Shown here piece after piece: positions 6,911-54,704 of a stretch of DNA of 64,000 nucleotides; within the stretch, counting starts at the first letter, position 1; each line of letters starts with the position of its first letter. Where the stretch lies: the sequence record PP337211, one strand, 5' to 3'. This DNA comes from Escherichia phage ERS-1. Below the pieces are notes generated by a model. It was given only the letters and a program-made list of their open reading frames with translations. It was not told where the DNA came from and made no database searches. Position numbers and translations under genes: made by a program.

Positions 6911-6991
6911 GTCGGAGCTGTTACGGCGCTGGGCCTTCCATGGCGCTTGGGGCTCAGACCTTCGGGCGTGAAGGTAAGTATCCCAGCGTTC

Positions 6992-8880: not shown

Positions 8881-10097
8881 TGGGCCGGTCTGCAAGTTCA
8901 CCCGAGGCCGCGGAACCATGTCGGCGAGGTGGTGCTGGTCCTGTAGAAGCGGTGCCACTTGGGCGTGTTGGCGCGTTCCGGCTTCCCCGCATGTGACGCG
9001 TGCGAAGGGGGTGGACTTCTGGGGAGGCTGCACCCGTGTTCGCTGCGTTCGCCGCGGTGCTTCATCCCTGGACAGTTCGCCGTCTGGCTCGCCACGCTCG
9101 TTGGGCTTGAATCGCTGCGAGGTCCTGGACGGGCCGGAGTTGCTCTGTGGAGCCTTGCGGACGGTAGGTTGTCGTGATTGTCGGTTTCTGCAGAGCCCGG
9201 GCGCTCGAGGACTCTGCTGGATCCGCGTCGGACTCGTCGCAACCTGCGGAGGTCGCTGCCAGCCTCGCCAAACCGCTTTGCCCCTTAATCGACCAGTTGT
9301 CGGTTGCGTGTAGGCAGGTTGCGGCTGGGTGGTGGTGTTGTGTACACGAAGGACTGATGGAGCTCCTGCTCGTCCGTCAATTCGGTCCAGGCGGCCGGCT
9401 CTTCCCGCGCTAAGGCAGGTCTGCCGCGCGAAAGGGGCGTCGTCGCGCGTTGATCCGGTACTCCGTCCCAGTCCGGGTTCGTCTGCTGTTCTCCGTGCAT
9501 GACGTGGGGGCGGGGTTCGCTGAGCCGTTGACGTCCCGCCTTCGCCGGATACTTGGCCTTGCCCGGAGGCGCTTCGCCTTTTGGCGCCTGGCCTTCCGAT
9601 AGGTGGCGGCCTGGCGCCCCTTCCGAAGGTCTGCCAGCACGCCCCGGAAGGCCCGGTATGACCGTGCCGAGTTTGGACTGGAGGTAGACTGTTCGCGGCC
9701 CGGGTTCGATTCCCCCCTTACGTCCGTAGCCCTGGACACCCTTCTCCTCCTCGCTGCCGAGGGCTCCGGGGTTGTTGAGGTAGATTTGCTGGCGAGGCGG
9801 TCCGTCTCCGCTCCTGCCGGTTCGTTGCCGATGGTTTCCTGGACGGAATCTCGACTGGCCGGTACCCAGGTGGGCGAGATAAACTGTAACCGGTGACGTC
9901 AGATTCGCTGCCGGGCTTCTCCGTCACTTGTAGCGCCGTTGTGATCGCGGTCGCTCCGCTCCTCCGCCCGGCATGCCCTCGTGGACGCGGCCCCGGTCCT
10001 GCCCGCGTCGGGCGGCGAAGGCGGCGCCGCGGTGTAGCTGGAGGCGCGGGCGGTGTCCAACCTGGAACGCTGCCGCTTTGTCCTCGCCGCCGTCCGT

Positions 10098-10950
10098 TCA
10101 CGGGACTGCTGGCCAAGTCCCGGACCGGTGTCGTTCGGCTCTTCGGCGAAACGGTCCCGAGGCGGTCCGGGATCGGTCGCCCTGGCTCCGCGGTTGGAAA
10201 TTGGAAGTCCTCGGGTCAAGCGGGTTTGGGGGTGGCCTGCTTCGGCGCAGGGCCACCGCTGCGTACGCCTGGGTCGATGAAGATGATCCGGATGCCCTGT
10301 CTCCTTTACGGGTCCTCCTCGGAAGATTGGCGCCGTTCGTTGGGTTCTCTTCGGGCAGAACGGCTGACCCCCGAAGTCGTCCGTTGTCGAACTCTGTTGT
10401 GGCGCATTTGGTGTGGTCGTCGCTGGGATAGGCCCGGACCGTCGCGTTGGCGGGTATCCCGCTGGTCGGGAGGTTGAGCGTGATCGCCTGCCCCGCGTGC
10501 GCGATGATGAACCGCCGTTCCGGGACCCTGCGCTTCCCGGTTCGCAGCCCCCGGCGAAGTAGCCGTCGGTGAAGGAGGAGAAGGCCGGTGAGCTGAGGCC
10601 CCGCCCCGAGACGCCCGTGAGGGTCGTGCTCCGCCCGGAAGTTCGCGGGCGGCCGCCCGCGGCCCGCAGGACGTGGGCGGTCGTCCGGTCCTCCGGCGGT
10701 GGGTCGGGCGGCGCGACGTGAGCCTGGCCTGCCTGGCTTCGGCCCCGCGCTCGGGTTCTGCCGATCCCCGCCGGTCTGCGGACGGCGAGCTGGCCGTCGC
10801 CTCGTGGTAACGCTGGACGGTGAGCTGGACGATGTCGGTGGGCGGCGAACCGCGGAATTGATCAGGAAGCCGATGCCCTTACCGCTTTGCCGGTGCCGGT
10901 TGCTCCGGGTATTCCTGGTTCTGCTCGAAGGCCCCGCGCTCTGACCTGGA
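10098..10950 (-). CDS. Hypothetical protein; frame broken
   Basis: rc peptides FIIAHAGQAITLNLPTSGIPANATVRAYPSDDHTKCATTEFDNG, LTGVSGRGLSSPAFSSFTDGYFAGGCEPGS, GKGIGFLINSA. Confidence 0.25.
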
Positions 10951-12420
10951 CGGAGTCTGGGAACCCCTGCCGACCCTTGCTCGTCCGCTGAGGTGTAGTG
11001 CCGGGATCGCGCGCCCCGGGCGGCGGGCGTGCTCGACCGGGTAGGCTTTGGCTGCTCCGCTCGCGTGCGTTGTGCGTTGCGGTTGAATCTCCGGCGGACT
11101 GGAGCTTCGGAGGGACCCGGTTGGAGTTCCGTCGAGTCTACCTGATCCGCGTCCTGGTGCTTTTGCTGGAAGCCGATTGGCGGATGCGACTGGCGTTGAT
11201 GTTGATCGGGGCGTCCGGTCTGATCGACCGCCGTGCCGTCCTGCAGGCCGTCGCCGCGTTGATCGTCCTGGCGGCCGTTCCGTCTGTCCGGAGGATGCCG
11301 ATGTGAGCGCGCTCCGGTGGGGTCGCGGTAGTCGTTGCTGGCGTGCCCTTGACGCTCTGGGCTGGCTCGCCGGTCTGGGCGATCCGCGGTTGTTCTCGAA
11401 GGTCGGAACCCGGAACGGGCGCGCGTCCTGGCGCCGGCGAAGGAACTTGCGGAGTTCGTGACGTCCTGGAGTCCTGGAGGTAACTGTAGGGGTGTCCGGT
11501 TGTGCGTAGGTCGGGGCGATAGAAGCTGGCCCCGCCGCGGTCCCGTAGTCGCGTGTCGGCCCGGGCTCGAAGGCTGTCCGTCGGCGCCTCGCCCGTTCTC
11601 GGCGCCTCGTCGAGATGTCAGGTGCCGAGGAACTGCGTGGGGGCCGCGGCGGGTCCGTCGACGTTGTCGCTGAACTCGGTGCGATTTCGGTGAACCGTCG
11701 TAGCCCGAGGTCGCCCGCGAGACGTTGCCAGGACCGCCGAGGCGCCGGGTACGATCCTCGGGTTGGCGAAGGTTTCGGCCGGTGGTCGGTTCGGTGCGGA
11801 GTCCCGGCGGAAACGATACCCGTGCTGCGGTCGCGCTCTCGCGGTTGGATCTCCCGGTTGACGATCGGCGCGCTGTCCCGGTAGTCGGAGGCGGTCGTGC
11901 TCGATGTTGATCCGGTCGTGCCCGCCTGTGGTTCCCACCTGTTGGGCCTCGGGTCGGAGGCGACGGCCCGGGTTGCGAGTCGGCCGGCTGGTGCCTGGTC
12001 TCCGCCCGGCCATTTCCTGGTACGGGATCGGATAGGTGACGTTGAAGGACTGGCGGGGCTCTCGTGCGTGCCTCGCCGCTCCGACCTGTCGTCGGTCGTG
12101 AGGCACGTCTGTTTTCCCGTCGTGACCTCCTTGGCGGGGCCTCGAAGATGTACGGGGCGACGATGCGCGAGCCCGACAGCACGTCGGCAGGTCGCCGTAC
12201 GACTGTCCCGTCCCGTCGAAGCGGAAGATGGCGTTGATGTCGGGCGGGCCGTCCGTGGTTAATGCTGCTGATAGGTCTGGTCTCCGGCCGCCCCGTGTCG
12301 CGGGCGGGATGGCCTCCTGGGTGGAAAACGCCGCCGCCGTTCTGAACCTGGATGTTCTGAAGGTATCGGTTGTCGAAAAGCTGTTCGGGTCCCTTGATCG
12401 CGAACTGCTGCTTCCTCTCC

Positions 12421-12930
12421 TCAGGTTTGCCGTTTGACGTTCGAGGGGCGGATGTGGACGCGGTTGTAGTAGTTGTTGTAAGCTAATGCCCTGCCGTCGA
12501 AACCTCCCCGGCTTCGCTGATGGGAAGGCTGTTCTGGACGGAGCCGAAGCCGTCCGTGGTTCGCTCCCGGGTAACGTTCTGGGCGGGCTTTGATCGTCTG
12601 CTGGACCAGGAGTCCCGCCCCACTGCCGGTTCCGGGCGGCCCCTGGAGACGGTGCCCTGCCAAGGCTCGCCTGGACGACTGTGTCAGACCTTTGTACCAT
12701 TTCCCCCGTTGGGATGGACCGCCCGCCTTTTCTGGTACGGGTGGAGCCTTCCGTCCCATCTGGTTGGGTGTGACCTTCCTCCCCCGGCCGGCAGGCCGGC
12801 TCGCCCTGCCCATTGGATTCCCCACCGGACTCGGGTACTCCTCGTTGCGGTTCGCTGAAGAGTTGATTGCAAGGACAAGCCCGACCCTGTTGGGGGTCGG
12901 CGAATAGTCCACGGGTTCATCCGTGAGCAC
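12421..12930 (-). CDS. Hypothetical protein (structural-like), stop at 12421
   Basis: rc peptides VDYSPTPNRVGLVLAINSSANRNEEYP ... GFDGRALAYNNYYNRVHIRPSNVKRQT then stop. Confidence 0.3.
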   Translation of the reverse strand: MLTDEPVDYSPTPNRVGLVLAINSSANRNEEYPSPVGNPMGRASRPAGRGRKVTPNQMGRKAPPVPEKAGGPSQRGKWYKGLTQSSRRALAGHRLQGPPGTGSGAGLLVQQTIKARPERYPGANHGRLRLRPEQPSHQRSRGGFDGRALAYNNYYNRVHIRPSNVKRQT

Positions 12931-13474
12931 CGCCTCCGCCGGCCCTGACCCGCTCTAGCGTAGGTCGGGCCGGCGCCAGGAGTGACCCTCCGAATTGTTC
13001 AAGGAATCGAACGAGCTGGAAGGAGACCCTGCCGTCGTCGTTGGCCGTGGTATAGTGAACCTGCCGACCGAAGGGACCTCCGGCAGTCCGTAGTTACCGC
13101 CGTCGGATCCTGCGGGTGGCGTTTCCGGTATAGTTGCGGGATGTTCCCCGCCCGTAGCGTAGAAGAACCGCCCCGCTCCGGGCCGCGGGTCAGGTTGGTG
13201 AGCCGAAGCCCTGGGCGCTGGAAGATAGTGGATGCCACCCTTGGCCTGTAGATGGTCTTGCTGTCCGGCAGCGGTAGGATGGCAATGGCCCCAAAGTAGA
13301 TGGGCAGCGGAAGATTGGCATGCCCTTGTCCCCGTTCGAGGTCGAGTGCGCAGCGGATAGCCGGGCTGGCGATCCGGCGAGCCCCCGCGCAGCCGTCCGA
13401 ACCGTTGACCGCGATTGGTATCGCCCGGAGCGAGGAACCGTTGACGGTGATGGTTTCGTTTGGGCAGCTGTGGT

Positions 13475-14240
13475 TTAAATAGGCCGTACCCTCGTGAGGG
13501 GCTCGCGCCGGGAGCCCGCCGCCACGCGGCCGTTTACCCTGGCCGCGGCGAAGTCGTGGCTGAAACGGGTTGTTGTCCGGTCCGGTCGTGCACCGGGTTC
13601 GGCTTCACCGGTTTGTCGTGTAGAGGTGGTGCTGGTGGAACTGATTCCGGTAGGCGGTGCTGGAGTTGTGGGCCCCGCCGTTATAGGTTGTCGTGTTCTC
13701 CGCGGCGTTCTGATACCCGCTGATGCTGAGGTCCCTCGGCTCTCGACCTCGCCAGCCAAGGGAGCCCGCTGGAGTAGGACGGTGGGCCAAGGACCCACCA
13801 CGCCTTCGGTAATTGCGGTATGGAGCTTGCCTGAGCTCCGGTCGGTCGTCCCGTGTGGCCCCCGCCGCCGCCGCTGGACGGCGAGAAGGGGATGCTGGCA
13901 GGATTTGTGTCGGCCCGGCTCTCCGGTTGCGGGCTCGAGCTCGCCGCCTCCCGAAGTATGCCTTTAGCCGTCTGGGTTGCGAGGCGTCGCCCGGGCGGCC
14001 TTCGCCTGCTCGGGAGCCTGTCGTTGCCGGTGCCCGGCACGTCCGCGGTGCCGTTCGCGTAGGAATAGCGCCGCTCGGAACGGGAGCGGCGTCCTGCGGG
14101 ACCAAGGACCCCCCGACCGCCTGCGGGTAGGGGAACTGGTTGGGCGTAGGTGCGGTGACGCAAGCCCGGCAGCCTCCCTCAGGCTGGTCGCGACCTCGGC
14201 GAACTGCAAGGAGCGGCCGAGGCGCGAATGAACAGGGCAA
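13475..14240 (-). CDS. Hypothetical N/T/Y/G-rich protein, tail-fibre-like composition; frame broken
   Basis: rc peptides ISGYQNAAENTTTYNGGAHNSSTAYRNQFHQHHLYTTNR, FSHDFAAARVNGRVAAGS. Confidence 0.25.
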
Positions 14241-15499
14241 TGTGGCGTTCCCGGGGACGCGTCGGGACGGCGAGCGGGTATTGAGCCCCGAACCGGTAGG
14301 GCGCGCCCGGCTGGTCGAACGGGGCGTCGGTTGGCGTCAGTGCCCGCGTACCCGTTCGTTGACGCGTTGTACCTGCCTGCGGCGCTGTCGTACTCTGACC
14401 TGATCTCGGCGTAGATTTCGGGTTGCAGTTGCCCGTGCCTTCGGGATGACCTCCGAGCCGAAGTGGTTGGCCGTCGGTCCCGTCCGCCTCGGCGAGGAGT
14501 TCGGACCTGAAACGTTCGTTGTTCCGCTTTGGATGGTTCCTGGCAGGTCGCCCGGCCAAGATGAGCCCCGGCAGTTCCGGCAACCGCGAAGGTCGCTGTT
14601 CCCGAGGGAGGCGGGCGTCCGTCATGGTCAGGCTGTAGTCCGTGAAGTCCCGTCGTCTGAGCATCGGAGGCCAGGACCGCGGGGGGAGGCCGTTGGATGT
14701 GCCGTATGTCGGATGTGACTTGTCCGCCGCTTGACTTCGCGGGCCGTCCCAGCTTCTGTGAATTGAAGCTGACCCCCGGATAGGTTCGAGGCGTACAAAA
14801 GCGGCCAGTTATTGTGGGGTCGTTCTGTGTTGGGTTCGTGGGGTTGTGCTGAACGCGTGGGGATGGTTCTTTGCGAGGCTGGTGGCAGGGTCCGCTGGCG
14901 GCCGGTATGGGTGGCGATGTTGTCCCGGCGGTACGGCGCGCCTGCCGGGCTGGCCATGCGCCGCTCCTTCTGGGTCGCGTTCGTGGTAAGGTGATCTGAC
15001 TCGCCAGAAAGTCTCGGGTTCGTCGCGGTTCCGATTTCGTTGCCTTGTCCTTCCCGGTTGTTGTGACCTGGCGGACCGCGCCAGCGTTGCGTCGGATCCC
15101 GTTTGGAGGACCCGCTCGCCCGAGGAGCTGGTGGTAGTCCTGTTCGGGCTCGATCCGTTCAGGCCCGGATCGCGGACCGACCGCCTGCTGCCCCTCGCCA
15201 CCGCCTGACGCGCTTCGCCCCGCTCCTGGGTCGGAGTACGGATGGACCTCGCTTTGCCGGCGTAGGCGGAAGGCGACCTGCTGCGAGTCCTGCCGCCTGC
15301 CCCCCGCCAGCGGGTCCCCTTCTGCCAGGCTGGGCCTGGCGTCCTGGGCGATGATCTGGGCGACGTTCGCGCGTCGCCGCGCCGGTCGCCGCCGCGAGGG
15401 CGTAGTTGGCCGGGGCGGAGCGGAGGCGAGGGCCTTCTGAACTGCCCTTGCCGTCAATGGTTGCCGCGGCGATAGCCGCCGCCTTGCCGATTGCCGCCT

Positions 15500-25489: not shown

Positions 25490-25942
25490 TTAGCCCTTTA
25501 CCGGCCTTCTCTTCCGGAGTCGATGAATCTTGCTGGCGGTTTTGCCGTGCCGGATTGCCGGTGTTCCGTCGCGGCCCGCGCAATTCACGCGTGGGCCTTC
25601 GCCTCTGGCGTATGTCGGTAGCGGACACCACAGTACGGTTGGCGAAAAGGGAAGCCCCCTGGCCGGGGGCCCCTGGGCCTCCCCGGATCCGTCCCTCGCC
25701 CACCGCGGCCCGCCTTGAACTGACCCTTGGCGAGGCCCTGGGCGATCCTTTTCGTTGGCCGGTTGGTGACCTTGCCCTGCTGGCGCGGAGGCGCTGACCG
25801 CCGCAGGTGCCGCCGCCCGCCGGGCTTCCGACTCCAAAGGGTGGTCCTGGCTTCTCGTTGGCCTTCGGTTTTTTTGCTGACCTGCTCGCGGATGGTCCGT
25901 GGGCTGGCCGGTTGCTGCGATAATGTGGTCGCCCTGGATCAC
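25490..25942 (-). CDS. Hypothetical protein, start overlapping upstream stop (GTGA)
   Basis: rc ...GVQ-TGA overlaps GTG-ATC-CAG (MIQGDHIIAATGQPTDHP...); an A7 run follows shortly after. Confidence 0.25.
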   Translation of the reverse strand: MIQGDHIIAATGQPTDHPRAGQQKNRRPTRSQDHPLESEARRAAAPAAVSASAPAGQGHQPANEKDRPGPRQGSVQGGPRWARDGSGEAQGPPARGLPFSPTVLWCPLPTYARGEGPRVNCAGRDGTPAIRHGKTASKIHRLRKRRPVKG

Positions 25943-27672: not shown

Positions 27673-30600
27673 TGCCTTCTCCATTTCTTCGGTCCGTTTG
27701 CTGAAGTGGTATAAGCCCGGTAATTGAGCGGCCGAGGACGATGCTCAAGGAGCCAAAGCCAAGAAGTGCCGGGTTCGACTCGCCTCCGGATTCCGGTTGC
27801 TTCGCCGCCTTCGCCGCCTTCGCCGCCCTCGCCGCCCCTCGCCCCTCCCCTTCGGCGGGTCTTCTGGCCGGGTCGGTGCCGGAGCTGCGCGGCCCATCGC
27901 CTCGCCGATCTTCCTTCTGCCCTCCCCTCGTCCGTTGAAGTCCTCCGGCAGGACCCCGCGGCGGAGGCCGTTCGGGTGCCCCGCGGCGACGTCGCGCTTC
28001 TCGCGTGCGACTTGGAGGGCCTGAAGGCCCGGGGCGTCCGTTTTTCCGTCAGGCTCCGGCCTGCGCGCCGCCGTTCGGCCCAGGCGGAGCCGTTCGCGGT
28101 GATGTCCAGGGCCTGGGCCGGGCGTCCTCGAACTGCCCGTTGTCGCGTTCCGTCGCCGGTCGCCTCCGCGCTGTCCGGCGCCGGGCGGTCGCCGTCGCCC
28201 GCCGGTCTGCGCTTCGGGAACTCCGCGCCAGGCCCGCCCCTTCCCGCCTCGGGTGTCCTTGAGGTCCGTGCGGCCCGCGGCGATGGCTTGGCCGGTGTGC
28301 TCACCAGAGAACCGGCCCGCCGGGTCCGGGTTGGGCCCTTGTCCGGCCTGACCACGGCCGGGTCCCAGTCCTCCCCGCACGCCCCCGAGGCGAGGATCGG
28401 GAAGCGGGAGACGGTGAGGATGTGGCGTTGGTCGGAGGAGGACTGCCTGTGAGCCACGTCCGTTGAGGTGAGCCGTGTCCGGGAGCGGGGGCTTGCCCGG
28501 CGAAGCCTTGGCGGTCCGCGTAGAAGGTGACCTGTGGGACGGGTAGTTCTGGCCCGTCGCCCCTTCCTCGCCCTTGCCCCCTTCTGGGCGTTGGACTTTT
28601 GCCGGCTCCCGGCTGAGGCCCGGCTCCGGACGCGGATGCGGCGCTTGGCGTCTCCGCGAAGCCGTCCTGCTCGGCGTAGTGTTCGATGATGCGGACGTGC
28701 TGGAGGACTTCACCCCGTCGATCACCTCTGACCGGGCGGCTGGGGTCGGCTCTGATCAGATCCTGTACGGGCGGTGCTCTCCCGGCGGTCCTTTGCGGGT
28801 CCGGGGTTGGCCGTCCTCCCGCGGGGCCGGGCGGGGGTCGATGAGGACGTGGCAGGGCCTTGCCTTGCCTTCGCGAACCCTTGATGGGCCAACGTTTGTC
28901 GTTCCCCGCAGGTTCCTTGTTGGTGATCGTCTCCAAATTGCCTTGGGCACGTCTCGCCTCCAGCTTGATCGGCTCGCTGAGGGCTTGCCGCTCTGGGCGT
29001 CCGCGTCTGTTCGACCTTGTTGAGGAGGACGGCGGAGGCCTGGTGCTCCTGATAGCCCTTGTCCGTCTCCCTCCTGGTGGCGGGTACGCTCCGCCCGCCT
29101 CGCGGATCGTTTGCCCCGCCTGGTCTCCATGACGTGCCGTGCGGAGGTTGGGCGTCGCCCCCGCTGGTCGTGGCGGGGGGCTCTTCGGGCTTTGTCGGCC
29201 GGTTGGTTCTCCTGGTTCGCGGATCTCGCCCGAAGGCGAGGACCCTGGCAGTTGCACCGAGGTTGCCCTGCTTGACGCGCGTGGCTCGTGCGCGGTAGCG
29301 GATCGCGTCGGCGTGGTCCTCCGCCTCCGTGTTTGTTGTCCGTCCTCGTCGTCGTGGGGGGGGGACCGTCCGATGGTCTGTGATGCCTGTCGAAAGACGG
29401 GACCTGCCGGGACCTCGCGCGGTCCCCCGCCCGCCGGAGGTAGTCGCCCCCCAGGCTCGCGGATTCGCTCCTGCCTGCTTGCGCGAGCCTGGGCCTCGTC
29501 CGCGGGCGTCGGCGACGCCCTTCCTCTCCGTCTGGCGGCGATGCCGTCGCCGTTCTCCCGTCGAAGATGGAGGAGCTGCGGGGCCGGGCTGACCCACCTT
29601 CCGGCGCCCAGCCCCTCCTCCCGGCCCTTGCCCTTGGGCGACCTCGGAGGTGAGGCGCGGATGCCCTCGTTGCGCGTTCCGTTCCTGCCGTACCGCCCTG
29701 GAACGGGTGATCGCCCCGCCTTCCCGGCCTCGCGGCCGTTCCCCTGGAACGGCTCCCCTTCCGACTCTGCCTCGGCGACGGCGAAGGGCTTGCAGCTGCC
29801 CCGTCGAAGCCGCGGCGACTTTCACCGCTTCGGGATCGCCGATGGCGGGACGGAGGGCGGGTGCACGTCCCCGCGGTAGATGTCGTCGGTGTCCCTTCCC
29901 GCGCAGACGCCCCAGGAGCCGTGGAGCCGGCGGCGAGTTCGGAGGGGTTCCGGCCGCGGCTCGAATCTTGCCGATGTACTCCGGGCGGCGTGGGGGTATC
30001 CGGTTTTCGGCACGGACCGGTGGATGGCGACCCGGGGCGGTTCGCGCTCGCCGTCTCGTCGCGTCCAGGATTGCCCACCGCGGCTGTGGGGAGGCGGAAG
30101 CGGGCCTCTGACCCTGTTGTGGCCGGGGCCGTAGGGGTTGGTGGTCGCCCGGTAGCGGGTCCCGGCTTCGCGGGAGTGGTGGTGTCCGTTAATGGCGAGC
30201 CCCGCCGTCGCCCGTTGGTGCTCTTCCCGCCGGTTGCGGATAGGCGTGGCCGTGGCAGTTCAATCCTCCGCGACTTCTGGCGCCCTGCTCCTCGCCGTCC
30301 GGGAGGTCTTCTGTGCTCCCCTTGTTGTACTTGGCCCCCGGGAAGATGCGCTTGAACCGTTGGTCTGTCGATCGCGTCTGAGGGCTGGGGTAGGTCTGAC
30401 GGGGAACTGTATGCCCCGCCTCTCCACCCGTAGCCCTTCCCCCGCGCTGGAGGAAGCCTTCCCTGGTCGGTCTTGCCCGGGCCGCGCGTCCCCTGCCTCC
30501 CTCGAAGATCGGGTGCGCCTTTAGGAAGGCGAGCTGCGACCCGCACCGGCCCTTCCCTGTCGCCTCCGACTCCTTCCCCCGTCTCCGGTCCGCGGCAGCC

Positions 30601-30849
30601 CTGGCTCGCCGGGCTCCGCCTCGCGCCGCTCGGGTTCGGGTAGTCCGGGCGGGCGGCGATGGCGACCGCCTTGTCGGCTTCGGTTCGAGCGGTCTTCCTG
30701 CCGCCCTCCCCGGTCGGACGGCCCGACGGTCCGCGGGCGAGGTCCCCGGGTCTGGTTCTGCCGTCGTTGATCGTGGCCGGAGCCCCCGGGACGATTACCC
30801 CGCCGGTGCCCGAGGTGGTTGCTGGCCGCGTCCTTCCCGTCCTTGAACT

Positions 30850-31250
30850 CCTGCGGTGGGCGCGGAGGCTGATGGCGCGAGTGAATCGCTGGCACCCTCC
30901 GCCGGTGATGATTTCGTCCTTGAACTTCCCGCCGATGATCGGCGCTCCGCCGCCCCGCGCCCGCTTCAGGCCGCGCCGGAACCTGGTGCCGGCTTTGTCG
31001 CTCGGCGGGCGTCCTCCAGGGCCTGGGAACTCTCGGTCCCTTCCCCGGTGATAGTCGATGGTGGAGCCGGAGACGCGGCCTCCGCGGTGTATTCCGCCCT
31101 CCCGTCGGGACGCGTGCGGAGGGCTCCTGGCACCTGCTCCTTGCGGTCCGAGGTGAAGGGCCCTTCGGCTCCGGCTTTTGGTCTTCCTGGTTGCGGTTCG
31201 CTCCCCCTTCGGCGTGTACTGTTCGTCGGTTGTGCTGCGTGGCCACCCGT
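30850..31250 (-). CDS. Hypothetical protein downstream of the 31.3-kb promoter; frame broken
   Basis: rc peptide GSTIDYHRGRDREFPG...RRGLKRARGGGAPIIGGKFKDEIITGGGCQRFTRAISL. Confidence 0.25.
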
Positions 31251-31281
31251 CCCGGCCTCGGTCGGGCTTTCCCTCGCCGCG

Positions 31282-31310
31282 AGTATAGCGTGAGCTTGGG
31301 CAATAGCCAA
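31282..31310 (-). promoter_or_regulatory. Sigma70-like promoter (-35 TTGGCT, 17-bp spacer, -10 TATACT)
   Basis: rc ccTTGGCTattgcccaagctcacgcTATACTcgcgg; sits ~100 bp downstream (minus sense) of AT-rich island B. Confidence 0.5.
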
Positions 31311-31419
31311 GGGCGGGTCGCGCCCGCCCGCGGGGAGAGGTCGAGGAGCGTGTGGGCGGATTGCCGGCAGGCGCGCAGCGTCCTCCGCTTAGGTTCGAGG
31401 GCTGCGTTCCACTTTCGTC

Positions 31420-31640
31420 CGAAAAAAAAAAAGTCAAGCGGTAAAGGTTAAAAACCTGCCCTTTATATACAGACAGACAGATAGATACTTAACTCACTAA
31501 CTCACTTACCTTAACCCCCTGACAGCCCTTCGGACAGCCGAAACCCTCAGTGGTGATTCTCTGGGCGGTCCGCCGGGTCGATTTGTCGGCAGAATTTATT
31601 TCAGGGTAAAGATCGAAGGTAACCTAGCTAAGGACGTGAA
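31420..31640 (-). promoter_or_regulatory. AT-rich intergenic island B, homologous to island A
   Basis: A11 run at 31422-31432; tttatata at 31463-31470; (CAGA)n and TAGATA repeats; ttaactcactaactcacttaccttaaccccc at 31489-31519; shared flank motifs GCTAGGTTAC and CGAYAAATCG. Confidence 0.5.
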
Positions 31641-32999
31641 CCCCAGACGGTTTGACCTCCCGCCTCGCCTCGCTTTCTCTTTTCGGAGCTGAACCCAGTG
31701 CATTTCGTAACCCGGGAGGTTCCCGGTCACGGAAGTGGAGAAGGAGGAGGGAGCCCCGCCGGTTTTCCGCTGGCCTTCGGCCTCCTGTAGCGAAGTCGGT
31801 CGATTGCCGCCCGGCGGGGCATTCAGGGGCGGGCTGCCCAGGTGTCGACCTGGATGGAAGGGGGTGAGGAGCCGCCCCGGCGGGCCTCCAGGTGGAGGGG
31901 AGGGGGTGGTTGTTGACGTAGGTGGAGCGGGGCGGTGGAATTGAGGGCGGCGTCCTCCGGGTCCCACGCCGCCCTCGACGGCCTGTCATCCCAGGTCGGT
32001 GCGATCGACCGGGAGACGCTGACGCGCTCCCAGCCCGCTCCGTCCGAGGCGATTGCGAAGCAGGGGCGCGGGCGTCCCGGGCGTTCAGCTTCAGCTCGAA
32101 GGCTCCGTTGTTCCCGAAGGATGGGTGGAGGCCAGACGGCCCGCGGTGACGCGGTACTGTTGGGGTGGAAGCCTTCAGTCACCTCCGTCTCGCGGGGCCG
32201 CGGCCCCTGGATTCCCCGATCAGCGCGACCGGACCGGCGGCGTTGAGCTGGGCGTTGAATTGCCGCTCCGTCTCCGCCTTGTTCTCCGGCTCATCGCCGA
32301 AGCAGACCCCGGCCCCGTCGGGCCGTAGGGGTGGGCTCCTCTGTCGTCGGGGTAAGTGGCATTTCGCGACGTCTCCCGGTTCGATCCGCAGGACCTTCCG
32401 CCGGCCGGCTAGCCGAACCGGGTCGTGTCCGCCCGGGAGCGGCTGAACTCGCTGTGGATGCGGTCGAAGTCGGACGGGTGGACGGGGCGGATCGGTAGAT
32501 TCATGAAGGGTCGCGGTCGCCGGTTGGGTTGCTCCAGGCATTCCCCGGCGTCGAAGTCGTGGACCTGTAATGGAGGATCTGGGGTCGCTGTCCGGTGATC
32601 GTCTCCCCATGCCCGGGCTTCGCCGGCGGTGTGCGGCGTACTGGCTTTATGGGGGTTAACGGAATTCGAACAGGGCCTGCGTCGGGTTGGCTTCGCCTCC
32701 GTGCCGGGTCCGAAGCCGCCGGACGGCCCGCTTCGCCTGGTCGATCGAGTTCGTCACTGTTCCGTGGTTCTCGGGTGTTGGAATAAGGTCGTTCTGGCGC
32801 TCCCGCTCCGCCTCCGTCTGTTGGTGCGGCCGGGCGCGGGGCGTCCGCGGCGGTCGCGGACCTCCCATTCACCGGCCGCCTTCCTCCGGGTAGCTGGAGC
32901 CGGCGGGCCGCTCGCCTTCGCGGGCGAGGGTTCCCGGTAGGTGACCTGATGAGGCAGGGGATGCCCGCCGCGGTCCTCGAACCTGGAGTGTCAGCCTCC

Positions 33000-34544: not shown

Positions 34545-34580
34545 AAAGAAGTATAGTGGGGGCCTCCGAAGAAGTAAAGC
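34545..34580 (-). promoter_or_regulatory. Sigma70-like promoter of the recurring family (-35 TTTACT 34573-34578, -10 TATACT 34550-34555, 17-bp spacer)
   Basis: rc GGGGCTTTACTTCTTCGGAGGCCCCCACTATACTTCTTTCAG; near-identical to the site at 36953-36990. Confidence 0.6.
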
Positions 34581-35616: not shown

Positions 35617-35762
35617 TTCCTCCCCGGAGGGAGTCGCGGGAGGTCGTGAGCTTCAGGCCCTTGCGCCTGGTGCTTCCCTGGGCCTTCTCGAAGGCTTCGT
35701 CGGGTCCTGGCCTGGCTCTTGACGTGGTAGCTGCGGACCTCGAAGGAGCCCTGAGGCTGCCT

Positions 35763-36915
35763 TCACCGTTGCGTTGCCCGGGCCGGGACCCGGGACGGCG
35801 TGGGTACGTCTCGCGGAGGGTGAAGAAGCTGTGCTCCCCCGACTCCGATGAAGGGTGGGGACGAAGGTGGAGGGGTTCTGGGTGCGGTTGTCGATGTGGT
35901 AGGCGGTCGAGCTCCTTTCTTGGGTGGGGAGGGCCTGAGCCCTCCCGTTCGATTGGCTGGCCGAACTTCCGGGGGCCCCGCGGCCTCCGCGAGGTCCGAA
36001 GCCGATGGCTCCTGTTGCCGTCGGCGCGGAGGACCTTTGTCGACCTGGCGGATCGCGCGATCGCCGGTGAAGGTCCGGGCGGCGCTGGCCTTGGCTTCGC
36101 GGGTGCCGGGAACTTTTGCGCGGCCCCGACTTCGCCCTGGGAGGTGGTGCCCTGTCGACGGTTCGCGGGCGGCGTGGGTCTGGCGGGAGGATGGTTCGAT
36201 CGGTTCTCCGCTTCTCAGGTTGTTAACGTGAAGAAGCAGACCTGCCGCCGTTTGCCCGAAGAAGTAAAGCCCCTGGTGGCCTCTTTTTCGACCCGCGAGG
36301 AGGGAGGGCCGAGCCTCCCGCTTCGTCTCGCCTTGCCTTCGGCTTCCCGGCCTTCGCCTCCGCGGCGGCGATGATGATAGACGGGGCAGGGTGCCGTTTG
36401 GTAGTAGAAGGCCCGGAGGAAGGTGGTGCCGTGCTGGCTTGTTCGTAGTGGACGTTGGCGTGGACCGGGAGCCCGCCGAAGATGTCGTGGAGGCGGAGGG
36501 CGTTGTTGTACTGCTCCTGCGCTCCTTCCGTCGCGGATGGACTTGGTTGCGGCTTCGACCTTGGCGTTGTCGCTGGCGCGTTCGATCTTCACCCTTGCCA
36601 GCGGCCTTGATAGCGGCGCGGACGGCTCCGAGGGCTTCGATCTGGGCGACGGTCGCGGCGGTCTGCGGGTCGCGGAGGGCGAGGGCGGAGTGCTTGGCCT
36701 TCCGTTGTGGGGTAGTCGGCCAGGTTTGGGCGCGGTCCGACCGCGGTGCGGGCGTCGTGCTGATGTCCGGTACCCTGCCGGCGACGTCGCGCTTCTGGCT
36801 CGAAGGCGCTGTTGAGGTCGCGGAGGGCTTCTCGTCGAGCGGCCTTGGAGGTGAAAGCCGGCCTCGAAGCGGGCGGTGGCGCGGTCGATGTAGAAGGAAG
36901 CGGTGCGGGCCGATG
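35763..36915 (-). CDS. Hypothetical protein; start codon reads ATC after RBS GGGAGAA; frame broken
   Basis: rc peptides FYIDRATARFEAGFHLQG, ALRDPQTAATVAQIEALGAVRAAIKAAGKGE, ARVKIERASDNAKVEAATKSIRDG, TTFLRAFYYQTAPC. Confidence 0.3.
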
Positions 36916-36952: not shown

Positions 36953-36990
36953 GAAGAAAGTATAGTGGGGGCCTCCGAAGAAGTAAAGCC
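36953..36990 (-). promoter_or_regulatory. Sigma70-like promoter of the recurring family (-35 TTTACT 36982-36987, -10 TATACT 36959-36964, 17-bp spacer)
   Basis: rc GGGGGGGCTTTACTTCTTCGGAGGCCCCCACTATACTTTCTTCACG. Confidence 0.6.
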
Positions 36991-39900
36991 CCCCCCGCGC
37001 GGTTCTTTTGATTCGGTGGGCCCGTGGTGGTCCCGAGCTGGCCGGCCCCCTCCCTCCGCTCCTCCGCTCCTTTCGCCCTGTTGGCCCCCGGCTCCCCGGC
37101 GGCATCTTCGCCGCGGCCTCCGCCATCCGGGCGCCTCGCGGTCCGTGTCGTGGAGGATGCGGCCAGTTGCCGAGTCGATTTGCTGCGGGTCCCTTGGGTT
37201 CTCCTTCTGGGTCGCCCCGGAGGACGTTGGGTGCTCGGAGGAGGGATCTGGCGGGGTGGTCTTTCCTGGCCGGCGTGGACGGCTTGCGCGCCTTCCGGCT
37301 TCGACCTGCCCCGCTCCTTCGCCCGTGCGCGGTGCGGGTGTCCCGCGGCGGAGATCCCCGGGATCGGCACGCCCGCCCGGCGATAGTAACCTCGGCAACG
37401 GCGATGTTGGGCTACGGCCCCTGGCCGGGTCGCTTCGCGTCGGGTACCGCCCAACCCTGCGGGCCAGGTCGGTCTGCGCGGAGCGCATTGCCTTCGGCGG
37501 GCGCTTGGGCTGGAGCCGCCCTGGTCCCGCCCGGCAACTGGACCGTGGAGGGTTCCACCCCGCCGCCGGGTAGGCGCCTGGAGGTTGCGTCGCCCTCGAG
37601 GTGTCTGGCTTCGCCGGATCCGGTTCGGCCGTCGAACGGGATCGCCCCGACCTGAATGACCCCGGCGTCGGCCGGTCGCCGCTTCGTTTTCCTGCCGATC
37701 GGCGCTGCCGGTTCGCGTTGTCGTCGTGATCACCTTCCTCCTCTTTGTTTGATCTCGCTTTGAAATCCCGGGGCCTTTGTTGCGGCATCCCGGACCACTC
37801 GCCGCCCTCCGCCTTTTTAGGGGCGGGCCTCCGTCCGGTTGAAGGGGTGAGCGGCGGTGGTCCGCTGGTCCCGGTGTGCGACTCCCAGTCGCGGGAACCG
37901 ATAGGCCCCCGGCGGGGGTTGATGAAGTAGCGTGGGGCGACCGCCTCCGAAGCGGTGCGGAACCGATAGGCCCCTGTGCCCTGCCACTCCCCGCGGCGGG
38001 GTTTCCTCCGGCTCGTCCGCCTCCCGGCGGCGGGCGCTTCGCCTTCCCCTTCTTGACCTTGCGGACGCGGGCCTTGCCGACCGGGCTGTTCGAGAAGGCG
38101 AGGTGGAGGGCGTAGCGCGGTGACCGTCCGCTGGCCGTCGATTGGCTGAGTTCTCCGGCTTTGGGTTCGGAAGAAGTCCGGCTCCTTTGGCTCGCCCGGG
38201 GGGCGGTCGCGTCCGCTCCGGCAACCTGACCATCCTGCAGGGCTGACGCGGCGGCGGGTGAACCTGTGAGCCCAGGGGGGTGAATCTGGATCTTGTGCCC
38301 TGCTGCGCTGGGATCCCTGTGACGTTCTGGAAGGACTGGGCCGTGGTCTGGAAGGACCTTCACCCCCGGGCCGTCTGCCCGTGGAAGGGTGTAGGCCCGG
38401 TGGGCGACTCCGGCCCCAGGTGGTCGCCCGGGAGGTCCGGATGAAGTCCTTTGCCCCGCTTCCCCGTCGTTTGTGGCGGGTTCGGTGGTTTCTCCGGTAG
38501 GGGTTGTTGGTCGAAGCCCGGGGCGGTCCTGTCCCGGGCCCGTGATCGGTCCCGACTCCGGCGGCGGGGCGGCGGGCGTCCGCCTGAACCTGCTCCGCCT
38601 GCCGGCCGCCGCGAACCGGGTTGCCCTTTGGCCTGGCGGGTTGAAACGGAGGTCTTGGCCTCCTGGCGTGGGCGTAGCCGTTCCCTTCTTGGTTTGAAGG
38701 GAACCTCCCGGGATGTACCCGGCCCTCGGTCCCGGTTCTCCTTCAGTTCTGGCCCTCCTCTCGTCGTCCGTTCCTTGCCCGTGCCGCTCCGCTCCTCCCT
38801 GAGGTCGCCGCGAGCCGTCGCCGGTCGGACGCCCGGGCCTTCTGCGCTGTTCCTCACAGCCTCCACCTGCCGACGGAAGGGCGAAGGCGAGAAGGCGGAG
38901 GCCCCCGTGGATCGCCGCGTCGGAAGGTTTGCCGGCGGCCGCTCCGCCTTGGGCTTGTACGTCCCGTGGGGCGCTTGTTCGGGGTCTTGGTTTGGTGCTG
39001 GCCCTCCTTCGGGTGCCGATGAATCTGGTGCCAAGCGGTCCGGGTCGCGCTCCTCGCGGATCGCCTCCCGGTGCCCGCCCTCGATCCGTGCTCCCGTGCC
39101 AAGCCCCTGGCTCGCCCTGGAAGGCGAGCTGGTGCGCTTCCCCGGTCGGCGCCCGCTCCGGGTAGGTGAGCTGGGCGGCAGTCCTTGCCACGTTCTTCCT
39201 GCCCGTGCCCGTCCGTGGAGTTCGCTGAAGTCGCCCGAGGCTTCGACTTGGCAACGGTACGCGGCCCGTCCTCGAAGGCCCCGCGGGCGGTTTGGCGTTG
39301 AATCTCCGCGAAGTGGCGACGGAAGCGGGCCGCGCGGAACTGGAGTTGGTGGGCGACGGACGGGCCGCCGAGGACCTCGTCCGCGGTGTGATGCCCTGCC
39401 CGCTGTCCGTAGTCGCGGACCTCCTCCGGCTTCGCGGAGGGTACGGCGGCGGCGATTGCCTCGAAGGCGACGGCCGGGTAGCCTTGCGCGCTGCCTCCTC
39501 GCCCTTCTTCGGGCGTAGGTTCCGAAGAAGCGATGGCCGGGTTGTTCGTCTTGATCCGTGTTCGTCTCCGTGTCGATCCGGGGTTTGTCGTCGTCCGGCT
39601 TCGGGAGGAGGGCGATGGCGCCCGCTTCGCGGAGTTCCTTCGGTGGAGCGGTCGCGGTCCCGGGATCGCCAGGCCGGTGAGCCAACCGATGAGCCGGCGT
39701 GTCGGTGGCGGCGGGTCGGCTTCCCTGGAGTCTTGGGCAAACACTCCCGGCGCTGGACCCGGTGCACCTGCTCCGAGGCGAGGACGCCCCGGGCGATGAC
39801 CTGAACCCTCCCGTCCGTGAGGGAGGCGTTGCCGGCACTCCTCGGCTGGGTACGGCCGGGCTGCTTCGTCCGTTCGTCCCTGCCGGCCCTCCGTGGAGTT

Positions 39901-43044: not shown

Positions 43045-43081
43045 GTGAAGAAGTATAGTGGTTGTCCGAAGAAGTAAAGCG
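43045..43081 (-). promoter_or_regulatory. Sigma70-like promoter of the recurring family (-35 TTTACT, -10 TATACT, 15-bp spacer as read)
   Basis: rc CCGCTTTACTTCTTCGGACAACCACTATACTTCTTCACAC. Confidence 0.5.
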
Positions 43082-49611: not shown

Positions 49612-52574
49612 GGGCGCACGGGTTCGGACTTCGGCCCCGCTCTCCCGTCACCGTCTTGCCTCTCCGGACGGCGCGACCGCTTCGTTGCCCGTGCTCCTCC
49701 CGGCGCTGCCCTGGTCGAGGGCGTCCGCGGCCTTTGCTGTCCTCCTCGTCGGGAGAAGGCCCGGGAGGTGCCTGGTCGCCTGTCGCGGCGTTCCGCGGCC
49801 TCCGTGCCCTTCCCCAGTTCGGGTGGTTCGCTCTCGCCGGGGCCGGCAATGTCGCCTGGCGGAACGCTCCGCGCAGTCGTGCCGCTTGGACCGCCTTGAC
49901 AGGTTCGGCGACGGGTGCGGGTGGAAGGAGGCTCGACGCCGTAGCTGCGCTGGGCGATGTTGTACTGACCGTGGTGCGGGACGATGTGGTCCGGTGGACC
50001 GTCCCGGCCTCCCGGGTCGCGGCGATCCGGGCGGAGCGGCGGACGGCGCGGCGGTTGGCTCCTCCGCCTCGCGCTCCTCGTCATGAATCTTGCTTCCCTG
50101 GCTTCCCTTCGTCCGCGTCTCCTCCCTGCCGCGCCGTCGTCATTGCCTGGGCCTCGCGGGCCTCGAAGGCGGCGCGGCGGCGTTGATCCGTTTCCTTCCC
50201 CGGCCGTCTTCCCGTCGGTGGCGGCGACGTTCTCCGCTCGCCCCGGGCGGCGTCGAAGCGGAGGGGTTGGACGCTTGAAAGCCTTGTGGGCCTTGAGGTT
50301 GGGATTGCTCGCGGCGGAAGAAGGGTTGCGGAAGCCGTCGGCGTCCGGCTCGCCGGTGCCCGGCTCCTGGTCGCCTTCCTGCCGGTCCGTGGAGGCTTGA
50401 AGCGGAAGGGCTCCGCGATCCCGGCGGCGTAGGGGTCGGGCGTTCCTTCCCGGGGTGTTGGGTTGGCGGCGAGGTCCGCGAGCGGGCGACCTTGCCCAGT
50501 ACCCTCATCGGCGTGGAAGTTGGCGCTGACTTGGCGGTAGATGCCTTGTTGGCCCGAGGTCCGGCGACGTCGGCGGAGGTAGCTGAAGTGGACCGCGTTG
50601 GCCCCTGTAGGCTCCCCGGGTCCCGTCGTCGGAGCGGTTGGTGCGGTCATGTCCGGCCGACCGTCGTGATCTGGAAGATGGCCTGAAGGTTGGCAGGGGA
50701 GGTCCTTGCCTTGGCGGCCTGGTCCGCGTCCGCGCTCCTGTCCAGGACCTGGCGGTGGTCATCGCGGTTCGCCTTCGGGCGGCGATGATCTTGGGCAGTG
50801 GTCCTCGAAGAAGTGCTGGCGCCCTGCGGAAGCCGTAGGCCCCGTGGAAGGTCCTGCCGTCGTCCAGTAGCTGCGCTTGCGACCGGCGAAGCGGGGCGCG
50901 CATTCCGCGTCATTGCGTCTGCCCAGCATCCAGAGGCTTTCCATCAGGTGGAAGAAGGGGTTGGCGTCCCGTTCTGCCCGGCGCGCTCCGCCGGCGGAGG
51001 CGCCGGTGGCGACGGGTTCCGGGCGTCAAGCGGGGCCGTTGCGCGAGTCGCGGCGGACGCCCTCGAAGGACCTGTCGAGAGGGCCTCCCGGGAGGGCCTG
51101 TTGTACGTTGCGGGCTTTGATGACTTTGTCTGTTAATTTGAAGATGACGTTGCCGGTCCGGCGAAGGACGCGGAAGCGGTTTGCGGGTGGTGCCCCGTTA
51201 AGCCGGCGTTCGGTTCGCGGATCGGGGGCGATAGCCCGGGACGGCGATTTTAACCGCGAAGGGGCGGGCGAACTGCTCCGCCTCGGCCCGGTTTCATTGT
51301 TTCTGACCGTGGTGACGGAGTTCGTGACGGCCTCCGCGGAGGACTTCGCCTTGGACTTCTCCGCGTCCGCTCGTCCCGGGCCTCTTCTAGGTGTCGGTGG
51401 TGGCTGTGGGCGCTTGGCGTGGTGTACCGGCGTTGTACTCGTGGGACTTGGCGATGCGGCGGCGCTCCCCGAGGTCGCGCGTGCGAAGCGTTGGCCCTCG
51501 AACTGGACCTTGACGTCGCCGTGGTCGGCAAGAAGCCGTCCGGCGCCTGCCCTTCCCGCTTGCGGAGCGGTTCCGGGTAGATGTCGTTGTACACGGCGTC
51601 CCCAGGGTGAACTTCTCCGCCTCCCTGGGCTTTTTTCGCGGGCCTCGAAGGCGTGCTGAGGACCCCTTGCCGCTCGCGGATGTAATTGGACCCGGCACCT
51701 GCCCGAACCTGGCCTCCAGTTCGTCGATGCCGCCGGAATGGTCCGGCGGCGAGGTTTCGATCCGGCGAGGGTGGTTGCCTTGCGCCGTGGTGCTCCAGCG
51801 GGTTTCTTGCCTTCGTCGGTGGTGCGCTTGCTCGTCGAACTTGGCGTGTGTTCGATGTCCCGGGCCTCGAACCGCGGCCCCCGCGCGGGCTCCCGAGCTG
51901 CGGCGGTCCGAAGGTTTCGTCGAAGCCCCGGGCGTCCGTGTTGGCTTGGCTTCGGCTCGATCAGTTTCCGCGTTCGTCTGCTCCGGGCGGGGCTTCGCGG
52001 CGAGGTCGTGCCCTGCTGGCGGTCGAGCCCGCGGATCGCCCCGGCAGGGCGTTGGCCGGTTCCGTGACGTCCTGGGCGTCGTGGTAGCGGGTGTGGCGGA
52101 GGTCGGTCACCGTTGCCCGGACGGCCCCCGCCGACCAGCGGTGCTGCTGGAATTTGGCCCTGCGCTTTCGAGGGTCGGAACCCGCGGAACCTTGGGGCTG
52201 CACTTGGCGGGCTCCGCGTCGCGCGCCCGTTCCTCGCGGTCCTCCCGGTACGGCCCGGCAATCTCCGCGATGTAGCGGTGCTTGGTCCGCTGTACCCTCC
52301 TTGGAGGGGTCGGACTCCGCGCGGATCGTGAGGCTCCGGGCGCCGCCTTGTTGCCCGCGGCGGCGTAGTCCTCCGGCGCTTCGCCGCTTCGCGGGCTCGA
52401 GTCCTCCCCTTTGCCGGGTTCCCGGCTCCGCCTTGTCCTGGAGAGCGGAGGGTGTCGGCTGTTGATGTAGCGGGCGATGGTGAGGGCGGGTCTTGTAAGG
52501 TGCGGGTGGTCCGCGTAGGGCTTGCGGATGTTCTCCTGGTCCTGGTCGTCCCGGGTTGGCTTCGCGGCAAGATG

Positions 52575-53245
52575 TTAGGGTACTGCCGCCCTCGCGAACC
52601 GGGTCCGCGGTCCGGGGCCGGGCTTCCCGGCCTTGCGGTCGGTAGACGTCGTGCCGGGCCCTTGAAGGCGGCGATGTCGTCGACGCGTGGGTGGTCGGTT
52701 CGGGGTCCTGGTCGGGCTCTCGATGACGGCCTTGATGTCCTTCGGGGCCGTCTCCCTGTGGATGTCGCGGACCGTCTCGCCGTCCGCCGTGGCCTCTCGC
52801 CGGACCCGGGCGATGGTGCGGTGCTTGTCGGCCTCTGGTTCTCCTCGACGGGCTTCCCGCCGTCGCGCTCCTGGATGTGCTTTGGGCTTCCAGCGGCGTG
52901 TCCTGAAGGCCGGGTTGTTCCGCCGTTCGCCTTCGACCCCTGCGCGTATGTAGATGGGCACTGACACCTCGCGCCCTCCAGCCCTACCGCCTTCACGTCC
53001 GGGCCCCGCCAACCAGCTCCGCGACGGCCTTGGCCGCGGCTTGGGTCTTGATCCGGTCCGGACCGGCGGTGGTCGCTCCGGCGGCGGCGGGGGTAGTCCC
53101 CGATGATGGCGATGCCGCCCGGCGCGTCGCCGGGATCGGCTTGTGGTCCGGGACGATGACGTCGATGACGTGGCCTGCGGATCGCGGTCCTGGCTGCGGG
53201 TGTGGTCTTGCCGGAGCCGTTACTGCCCTGCGTGATGTACTTCAT
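52575..53245 (-). CDS. P-loop NTPase with Walker A in the first 15 residues (ParA- or kinase-like); frame broken
   Basis: rc GGAGAACCCAAG-ATG (ATG is complement of 53243-53245): MKYITQGSNGSGKTT...; later peptides GHVIDVIVPDHKPIPA, ADGETVRDIHRETAPKDIKAVIES. Confidence 0.35.
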
Positions 53246-53556
53246 CTTGGGTTCTCCACCGGTTGAAAACGGCGGAGCCGGAGCCCCGCCTGGTTGCTGT
53301 TGGTTGCGTGATCGGGATGATCTTGCGCTCGCCGCCGTCCTCCTCCGGCGGGTCTGGTTCCACGATCTTCTTGAAGTCGGGCGAGCGGCCTTCGCCGCTC
53401 CGGCTGGTTCCGAACCGGCGGGCTTGCCCTTCGTCCGCTGTCCGCGCGGTGGAGACCTGCCGGTGGGGCGCGTCCCTTGACCTCCTGGAAGGGCTGGCCC
53501 GTCGGTCCGGTGAAGGTTCGGCACGCGCTGGCCGTGGCCGGTCTGCGGTGATCATT

Positions 53557-53955
53557 TCACGCCTTCCAAAGCCAGTGCCGGCTCCGCCGGCTCCGGGCTT
53601 CCCGCGGCGGGTCCAGGCGTCGCGTAGGTCGGTTGCCGTGCTCGTCGCCAGTTCCGGTACCTGGCCGGTGGGCTTCGACCCGGCACGGCTCCGCGATGGT
53701 CTTTTCGGGCTCCGGCCTGGTTCTCCGCGGGCTGTCGGCCAAGGCTTTGGTACGCTCCGGTCCGAACCGCTTTGGAGGCGTTCGATCATTGCCGGGGCCC
53801 GCTGTAGCCCGCCTCCCGAATTTTCGGCGATTGTGGTCGTTGCCGACCGCGGCCTGGTGCTCCAGCGTGTGGCGGATGTCGTCGTGGGTGACGATCCCCG
53901 GGATCTGCGGATTGACCTGAATGGAGGTGTAGATGCCCTGACGGCGCTCGGCCAT
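53557..53955 (-). CDS. Hypothetical protein
   Basis: ATG is complement of 53953-53955: MAERRQGIYTSIQVNPQIPGIVTHDDIRHTLEHQAAVGNDHNRRKFG... Confidence 0.25.
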   Translation of the reverse strand: MAERRQGIYTSIQVNPQIPGIVTHDDIRHTLEHQAAVGNDHNRRKFGRRATAGPGNDRTPPKRFGPERTKALADSPRRTRPEPEKTIAEPCRVEAHRPGTGTGDEHGNRPTRRLDPPREARSRRSRHWLWKA

Positions 53956-54143
53956 TTCGTCAGATGGTCCTGAAGGCTGATGGCCCCGGCAGGCCGTGCC
54001 GTTGTGGTCGTTGCCGGTGTTCTGTGACTTCTGGGCGTAGCTGTAGGGGTTCCGCTTCGGGTGCCCATGGCCCGTGACGGTAGCCGAGACGGCTGGAAAG
54101 AAGATGGTGCCGGGCTCCCGAAGGCTTCCGCCCCCGCCGGGCG

Positions 54144-54680: not shown

Positions 54681-54704
54681 TCTCCTTCAACTGTGAAAGT
54701 CAGC

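Follow-up and report, generated by a model that had tools for sequence, protein, structure and literature searches.

The 64,000-nt stretch of DNA analysed here (the window; sequence record PP337211, Escherichia phage ERS-1) is best explained, with a probability of about 0.85, as a single-strand long read, or an unpolished contig of equal quality, of modified Yuavirus DNA whose long single-base runs are read artefacts. The runs are present in the text of the window and are very probably absent from the underlying DNA molecule. Under this explanation one strand of a single molecule would have been sequenced as a long read, most likely on a nanopore platform, and the window would be the reverse complement of that read. 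The template is a YuA/M6-like Pseudomonas aeruginosa phage (genus Yuavirus), in which part of the thymidine would be replaced by 5-(2-aminoethyl)-2'-deoxyuridine (5-NedU). On the read strand, a modified T before G would give a signal that the basecaller cannot interpret, leading to deletion or miscalling of the T, and neighbouring bases within ~3 nt would be degraded too. Loss of the interrupting T, or of another interrupting base, between short runs of the same base would then fuse these into a false long homopolymer.

Phage identity and layout of the window

BLAST comparison with phage genomes gave collinear matches at 80-84% apparent identity to ~60 Yuavirus genomes of P. aeruginosa, among them PaTs-2, Pa-C, PaSz-4, AN14, YuA, M6 and LKO4. 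The nucleotide identity threshold for the genus Yuavirus is ~70%. Judged by its sequence, the window is a Yuavirus genome, being collinear genome-wide and having an identity well above the genus threshold. It shares with YuA, M6, LKO4, PaSz-4 and PSP2 (Mesyanzhinovviridae) the gene order, the placement of genes on one strand, a unit of ~62 kb, a regulatory island that precedes the terminase genes, and phage-specific promoter repeats. Far from TG dinucleotides, in the part of the window that is read twice, the identity to PaSz-4 is ~98%, and the overall figure of 80-84% is lowered by read errors. The window lacks ~770 nt around PaSz4_51 (PaSz-4 35759-36531), and its tail-fibre region is divergent from that of PaSz-4, aligning piecemeal at ~70% identity. 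Both, at 12473-14914 and 38006-38071 of the window, are ordinary mosaic differences among Yuaviruses.

The minus strand of the window follows PaSz-4 from 8728 to 61942 and continues from 1 to 14695, in four long alignments. This layout corresponds to one genome unit plus ~6 kb and fits terminal redundancy or a concatemer junction in a circularly permuted phage. The region of the RNR, ATP-binding protein and helicase genes is read twice on the minus strand, at 1-5700 and again at 58291-64000, with a period of ~58.3 kb in read coordinates. The RNR gene, mapped from PaSz-4, is found in both readings (82-1807 and 58380-60113, minus strand), and terL, mapped in the same way, lies at 29257-30696 on the minus strand. 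Since 8 kb of the window corresponds to 8.54 kb of PaSz-4, a net deletion of ~6%, the ~58.3-kb period translates into a real genome of ~62 kb. Between the two readings of these 5.7 kb there are ~380 runs of indels, most of them 1 nt long, and 296 substitutions. No coding sequence tolerates such differences, and the two copies are therefore noisy readings of one sequence. The twice-read ~6 kb also provides an internal replicate for error estimation.

Alignment to PaSz-4 shows 4486 bases deleted from the window and 1107 inserted, an indel every 12 nt or so, and none of the conserved Yuavirus genes is present as an intact ORF. We attribute this loss of intact ORFs to read error and not to biology. 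All of the long ORFs in the window sit on the minus strand, where they reach 1744 aa, but they are not real. They owe their existence to the scarcity of stop codons on the T-poor strand, and their translations are junk rich in R, G and P. Searches of the window with Rfam at gathering thresholds gave no matches and a tRNA scan of the window found none, while a search of a plasmid collection returned a weak ribonucleotide reductase match and nothing else.

Failure of thymidine before guanine

The errors in the window are unevenly spread over the four bases. On the gene strand, recovery of PaSz-4 bases was 82.4% for A, 91.7% for C and 84.2% for G, against 58.7% for T, and the poor recovery of T accounts for the low T share of this strand in the window (10.4%, compared with 15.9% in PaSz-4). 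Window-wide, the T of TG was recovered in only 18.7% of cases (n=3715) and all other T's in 81.8%. Sorted by the following base, on one strand of one molecule, T recovery was 19% in TG, 88% in TC, 74% in TA and 72% in TT. The T of TG was deleted in 30% of cases and called as C in 27%, A in 17% and G in 7%, leaving 19% correctly called as T. A search for an extended motif around TG showed that the flanking bases from -6 to +6 were without effect on T failure. The footprint is short, with accuracy back to normal within ~3 nt on either side of TG.

The twice-read region allows reproducible failure to be separated from random error. Both readings fail at 29.3% of T's, compared with 13.4% expected if failures were independent. 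T's that fail in both readings precede G in 80% of cases, against 5% for T's read correctly twice. The calls themselves are less consistent, differing between the readings at 123 of the 270 T sites that both failed. Where the nearest TG is more than 4 nt away, both readings agree with the reference at 90.8% of positions, one reading does so at 6.7%, and the readings share a non-reference call at 2.0%. The 6.7% of one-reading matches implies ~3-4% random error per reading away from TG, and the 2.0% of shared calls approximates the real divergence from PaSz-4. At this distance from TG the read is ~96% accurate and ~98% identical to PaSz-4.

An internal control is provided by the phage-specific promoter repeats, which are T-rich, TG-free, ~40 nt long and read nearly perfectly. 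Copies of the form CTTTACTTCTTCGG-N~11-CTATACTTCTT lie on the minus strand at 62950-62963, 57697-57710, 54713-54726, 43066-43079, 36975-36988, 36256-36269 and 34566-34579. The copies are free of TG and nearly free of error in the read, and TTTACTT is correct in 8/8 promoter repeats. The YuA record labels the repeat as a 'putative sigma70 promoter requiring phage-encoded cofactor', and it is probably the nine-promoter motif described previously (PMC10914365).

A failure limited to one base, one context and one strand, with a short footprint and a bias towards deletion, is what a bulky modification produces in a single-strand nanopore read. An origin of the window as a consensus assembly of both strands was considered and rejected. 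Reads of the complementary strand would have rescued the T at TG, which is recovered in only 19% of cases.

A second, smaller deviation was seen on the minus strand at positions more than 4 nt from TG. Here A after C was called as G in 16.7% of cases, compared with ~3.5% in AA and GA, and G after C was called as A in 5%, compared with ~1.8%. The effect is partly reproduced between the two readings, and the CA to CG change mirrors the commonest TG miscall of the other strand. It may reflect a generic transition bias, real CpG/CpA polymorphism or an influence of the opposite strand.

Single-base runs and the A11 site

A listing of all runs of at least 7 nt in the window gave six: A11, G9, two C8, C7 and T7. 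The A11 run occupies 31422-31432 on the plus strand (T11 on the gene strand, which is the minus strand), exactly where the earlier note had placed it, and is intergenic. That note also recorded a G9 at ~29353-29361 and a C8 at ~1331-1338. Both runs are present, but their positions were off by 2-3 nt: the G9, inside the large-terminase homologue, lies at 29356-29364 (C9 on the gene strand, minus), and the C8, inside the ribonucleotide reductase homologue, lies at 1333-1340 (G8 on the gene strand, minus). Three runs had gone without mention: the second C8, directly upstream of a phage-specific promoter repeat (36989-36996; G8 on the gene strand, minus), the C7 in the ATP-binding protein gene (2563-2569; G7 on the gene strand) and the T7, at which no gene was mapped (25869-25875; A7 on the gene strand).

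The plus strand is composed of 10.4% A, 21.2% T, 36.3% G and 32.0% C. Given the scarcity of A, an A11 run is far beyond chance: an iid model predicts 9e-7 such runs and a first-order Markov model 2.6e-4, and a calculation restricted to the A-richer island that contains the tract gives 3e-5. The A11 run is alone in this respect. Runs of at least nine G's are expected 4.5 (iid) or 2.6 (Markov) times and observed once, and runs of at least eight C's are expected 4.8 (iid) or 7.4 (Markov) times and observed twice, which places the G9 and C8 runs within chance expectation.

The longest runs in PaSz-4 are A6, C6, G6 and T5, and each of the window runs of at least 7 nt (6/6) aligns to an interrupted tract in that genome. 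The PaSz-4 counterparts are TTTTTACTTTTT for the A11, CCCTGTGCTGCCCC at ~45690 for the G9, AGATGGGGG for the C8 at 1333-1340, TATGAGGGGG for the second C8, GAAATGAAGG for the T7 and GGGGGAGG for the C7. TG is present in the interrupted tract for four of the six, and in the alignment at the G9 site the three TG dinucleotides of CCCTGTGCTGCCCC are dropped. The C8 at 1333-1340 falls in the twice-read region, and the second reading of this locus (near 59638-59650) gives a different string with no run. Fusion of shorter runs would account for the G9, both C8 runs and the gene-strand A7 (T7 at 25869-25875). If the runs are artefacts, the true sequence would be AAAAAGTAAAAA at 31422-31432 and of the GGGGCAGCACAGGG type at 29356-29364, with interrupted tracts at both C8 sites.

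True T5 runs appear in the window as anything from T2 to T5, and run lengths in the window are therefore uninformative. The shortening of real T5 runs to T2-T4 is shared with ordinary single-molecule homopolymer length error; the difference is that most of the long runs appear to be fusions and not mis-sized real runs. The suspicion that sequencing chemistry lay behind the tracts was sound as to their origin in error, although not in the form of real homopolymers read at the wrong length, the tracts being better described as shorter runs fused by miscalling or deletion of the interrupting bases. Some tracts do coincide with frame breaks, as had been proposed, but the coincidence is uninformative because about one indel per 12 nt relative to PaSz-4 breaks every gene throughout.

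The A11 run lies inside the intergenic regulatory island B, as the earlier note had it. Island B occupies 31197-31833 on the minus strand. It separates the last host-interaction gene from the small-terminase gene, the two neighbours lying at 30696-31196 and 31834-32175. The island is 640-710 nt long, corresponds to a 710-nt gap between genes in PaSz-4, and has a low GC and high A content at 31296-31761. Comparison with the relatives indicates that the island is real and highly conserved in Yuaviruses, with a core of ~180 nt that is near-invariant among eight cultured phages. The A11 site was compared in these eight (PaSz-4, YuA, M6, LKO4, PSP2, SN1, BILI and EKU1) and in 8 IMG/VR contigs. On the gene strand, 15 of the 16 relatives (7/8 cultured, 8/8 IMG/VR) have CGCTTGAC-TTTTT-AC-TTTTT-CGGAC, and EKU1 has TTTTTACTTCTT, which is interrupted too. 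The window's own version of the site was absent from viral, genome and metagenome contig collections in an exact search.

In PaSz-4 the counterpart of A11 (at 43487) is a copy, with 2 mismatches, of CTTTACTTCTTCGG, which is the upstream box in the phage-specific promoter repeat. The TG-free TTTTTACTTTTT element of the relatives is a degenerate version of this box, and in PaSz-4 it is without the downstream half of the repeat. Tandem repeats of TAAGTTAAG (x3.2) and TATC (x5.8), invariant in the eight Yuaviruses, lie a short way upstream of the tract, at ~31450-31510 in the window. The PAE1 record ends within island B.

Two promoters flank the A11 site. A proximal sigma70-like promoter, TTGGCT-N17-TATACT, lies at 31282-31310 on the minus strand, upstream of the small-terminase gene, and is supported by the LKO4 annotation and by an independent scan. 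The counterpart of a sigma70 promoter that, according to the YuA record, was recovered in a promoter-trap assay lies at 31598-31627 on the minus strand; YuA has TTAGGT at -35 and TGAAAT at -10, and the window has CTAGGT at -35. The distance from the -10 of the YuA promoter down to the A11 site is ~165 nt in window coordinates (~173 nt in YuA coordinates), and that from the A11 site down to the next sigma70-like -35 is ~111 nt in window coordinates (~120 nt in LKO4 coordinates). UP elements are positioned at about -40 to -60, upstream of the -35. The proposal that A11 functions as a UP element or a bend found no support, since both promoters place the site outside -40 to -60 and the tract is interrupted in the relatives. 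The likeness to a UP element or A-tract bend is one of superficial appearance, whereas no annotated or predicted promoter has the site in its -40 to -60 region. A sigma54 or sigma70 reading of TTGACT with the T-tract was rejected by eye, there being no acceptable -10 or -12 at the right spacing.

In the LKO4 record two terminators, and no promoter element, are annotated here, at the first T5 and directly before it. A hairpin formed by AAAGGGCUGU and AUGGCCUUUU and followed by U-rich sequence is predicted at the A11 site, with a fold z-score of -0.83 that is no better than those of shuffled sequences, and a terminator pattern scan of the clean LKO4 island found none. The A11 run also has a superficial likeness to a phase-variable contingency tract. 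A contingency locus is not indicated, because all 16 relatives are interrupted at A11 and PaSz-4 is interrupted at the other sites; with no uninterrupted run in the relatives, there is no real tract whose length could vary.

The TG mechanism does not explain A11. The TG nearest to the AC within TTTTTACTTTTT is more than 4 nt away, which places the AC outside the footprint, and the changes needed, A to T and C to T, are the rarest miscalls in the read. Under the artefact explanation the TG-free TTTTTACTTTTT would have been misread as T11 by an ordinary homopolymer-type read error. By our estimate, a context-free error model using the error rates of the read puts such a conversion at ~3e-4. The position of the AC and the rarity of the miscalls speak for the alternative that A11 is real, a private variant of the conserved TTTTTACTTTTT that might alter local regulation as a terminator tail, promoter half-site or bend, with only the G and C tracts being read errors. 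The correct reading of TTTACTT at all eight other places and the variability of the element, as seen in TTTTTACTTCTT of EKU1, speak for it as well. We nevertheless consider it unlikely. An uninterrupted T-run is found in 0/16 relatives, of which 15 have TTTTTACTTTTT within the near-invariant ~180-nt core, and a private variant would need both a substitution and a deletion at adjacent bases. The read renders T5 runs as T2 to T5, making its lengths unreliable, and a true run of at least 11 T's would rarely be read at its exact length. The EKU1 variant carries less weight if that record is itself affected by error, several of its genes being fragmented. The EKU1 record (PV844354.1) is 57.1 kb long and lists the helicase and ribonucleotide reductase as several fragments; it may be affected by modification-induced long-read errors. 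The conservation of TTTTTACTTTTT among the relatives leads us to favour a read error at A11 over a private variant, by a margin that we estimate, with a single read to go on, at about ten-fold or more.

Thymidine hypermodification in Yuaviruses

The nucleoside of 5-NedU has a mass of 271 Da. In phage M6, ~30% of T is replaced by this base according to LC-MS, in a sequence motif stated to be unknown, and phages related to M6 are predicted to carry the same replacement (PMC5889632). Restriction data for M6 suggest that the modification occurs at 'TG, TC or TS' (PMC6449724). Elsewhere, near-complete targeting of TG has been reported in 2026 for alpha-dapT in Acinetobacter phage SH-Ab 15599, which uses the 5-HMUDK pathway, and a TG pattern was noted for PhiW-14 too (PMC13458397). 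A TG motif was also inferred for Pbunavirus in a 2025 preprint (PMC12191111).

In the window, excess T failure, an indirect measure taken from miscalls, amounts to 28.3% of all T on the read strand, compared with the ~30% 5-NedU measured in M6 (PMC5889632), and targeting of TG on both strands is predicted to modify 25-33% of T. DNA collinear with the thymidine-hypermodification cluster of PaSz-4 lies at 51761-56698 on the minus strand, where 79-85% of PaSz-4 bases are recovered. The products of this cluster in PaSz-4 are an amino acid:DNA transferase, a PLP enzyme, a radical-SAM enzyme, a 5-hmdU DNA kinase and a kinase helical-domain protein, and Pfam analysis of its proteins matched PF18724, PF00291, PF04055 (below the curated cut-off), PF18748 and PF18723. 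These domain matches were made on the PaSz-4 proteins, the ORFs of the window being broken by errors, and the cluster in the window is known from collinear DNA. Between the PLP and radical-SAM genes, at an alignment break relative to PaSz-4, the window has an HNH homing-endonuclease gene (54727-55101, minus strand), which LKO4, PSP2, PC1 and others share and PaSz-4 lacks.

These observations bear on the possibility that the tracts and the T deficit come from generic noise in long reads and from a bias of the basecaller on GC-rich DNA, free of any base modification. Long reads are known to mis-size homopolymers, and the CA/CG confusion is not obviously linked to modification. Noise of this kind is hard to reconcile with ~96% accuracy away from TG against 19% at the T of TG, a failure confined to a single base of a single dinucleotide and to one strand, and with an affected T share of 28% that matches the M6 LC-MS figure. 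The collinear modification-enzyme cluster and the TG preference documented for the pathway (PMC6449724; PMC13458397) point the same way, and we regard generic noise as improbable, slightly more so than a real A11.

The window was also weighed as a relic within a cellular genome. A decayed, pseudogenised prophage or duplicated relic of that kind, with the tracts as real mutational products, would account for the breakage of every reading frame and for the ~15% difference between the two 5.7-kb copies, but is scarcely credible given that the differences are mostly 1-nt indels at about one every 15 nt, that the copies often call the same T differently (123/270 of the sites failed by both), that identity to a living phage is ~98% away from TG, that the layout is one exact genome unit plus overlap, and that T is lost only before G on one strand, a pattern that to our knowledge matches no known mutational process.

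Miscalling on modified DNA is the reading we retain, and as a side result the read lends per-base support to TG-targeted thymidine hypermodification in a Yuavirus. The window shares with the M6 5-NedU system (PMC5889632; PMC8989533) the enzyme cluster, as judged by collinear DNA, and the share of T affected. It differs in that base calls cannot show chemistry, and in that TG and not TC is indicated. By analogy with M6, we infer that the modified base is 5-NedU, and its placement is presumably directed by the 5-hmdU DNA kinase of the M6-type pathway. With SH-Ab 15599, PhiW-14 and M6 the window has in common a near-complete targeting of T in TG and a modified share of T equal to the share of TG; the evidence in those phages is restriction resistance, whereas here it is per-base miscalling in one read. 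Compared with the 'TG, TC or TS' reported for M6, TC is the best-read T context in the window (88%). Apparent occupancy at TG, as derived from miscalls and not from a chemical assay, is ~77% or more. On balance we lean towards regarding the read as a base-resolution map of Yuavirus hypermodification, in which essentially every TG is targeted, TC is not, and the flanking bases are free.

The window is no place to look for ORFs, frame breaks, homopolymers or composition anomalies. Read error on modified DNA has produced its A-poor strand, its very long 'ORFs' and its frame breaks alike. When a base is lost on one strand and in a single dinucleotide context, with near-normal reading elsewhere, this pattern is a fingerprint of hypermodified phage DNA and of its motif. 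If this holds true, the error spectra of public native long reads could be mined for modification motifs. The phage and the modification are of a known kind, and TG but not TC at base resolution would be a modest refinement. The question of TG targeting in Yuavirus was described as open in 2018-2019 and has so far been addressed by restriction digests; if true, the TG map would sharpen the 'TG, TC or TS' conclusion drawn from those digests.
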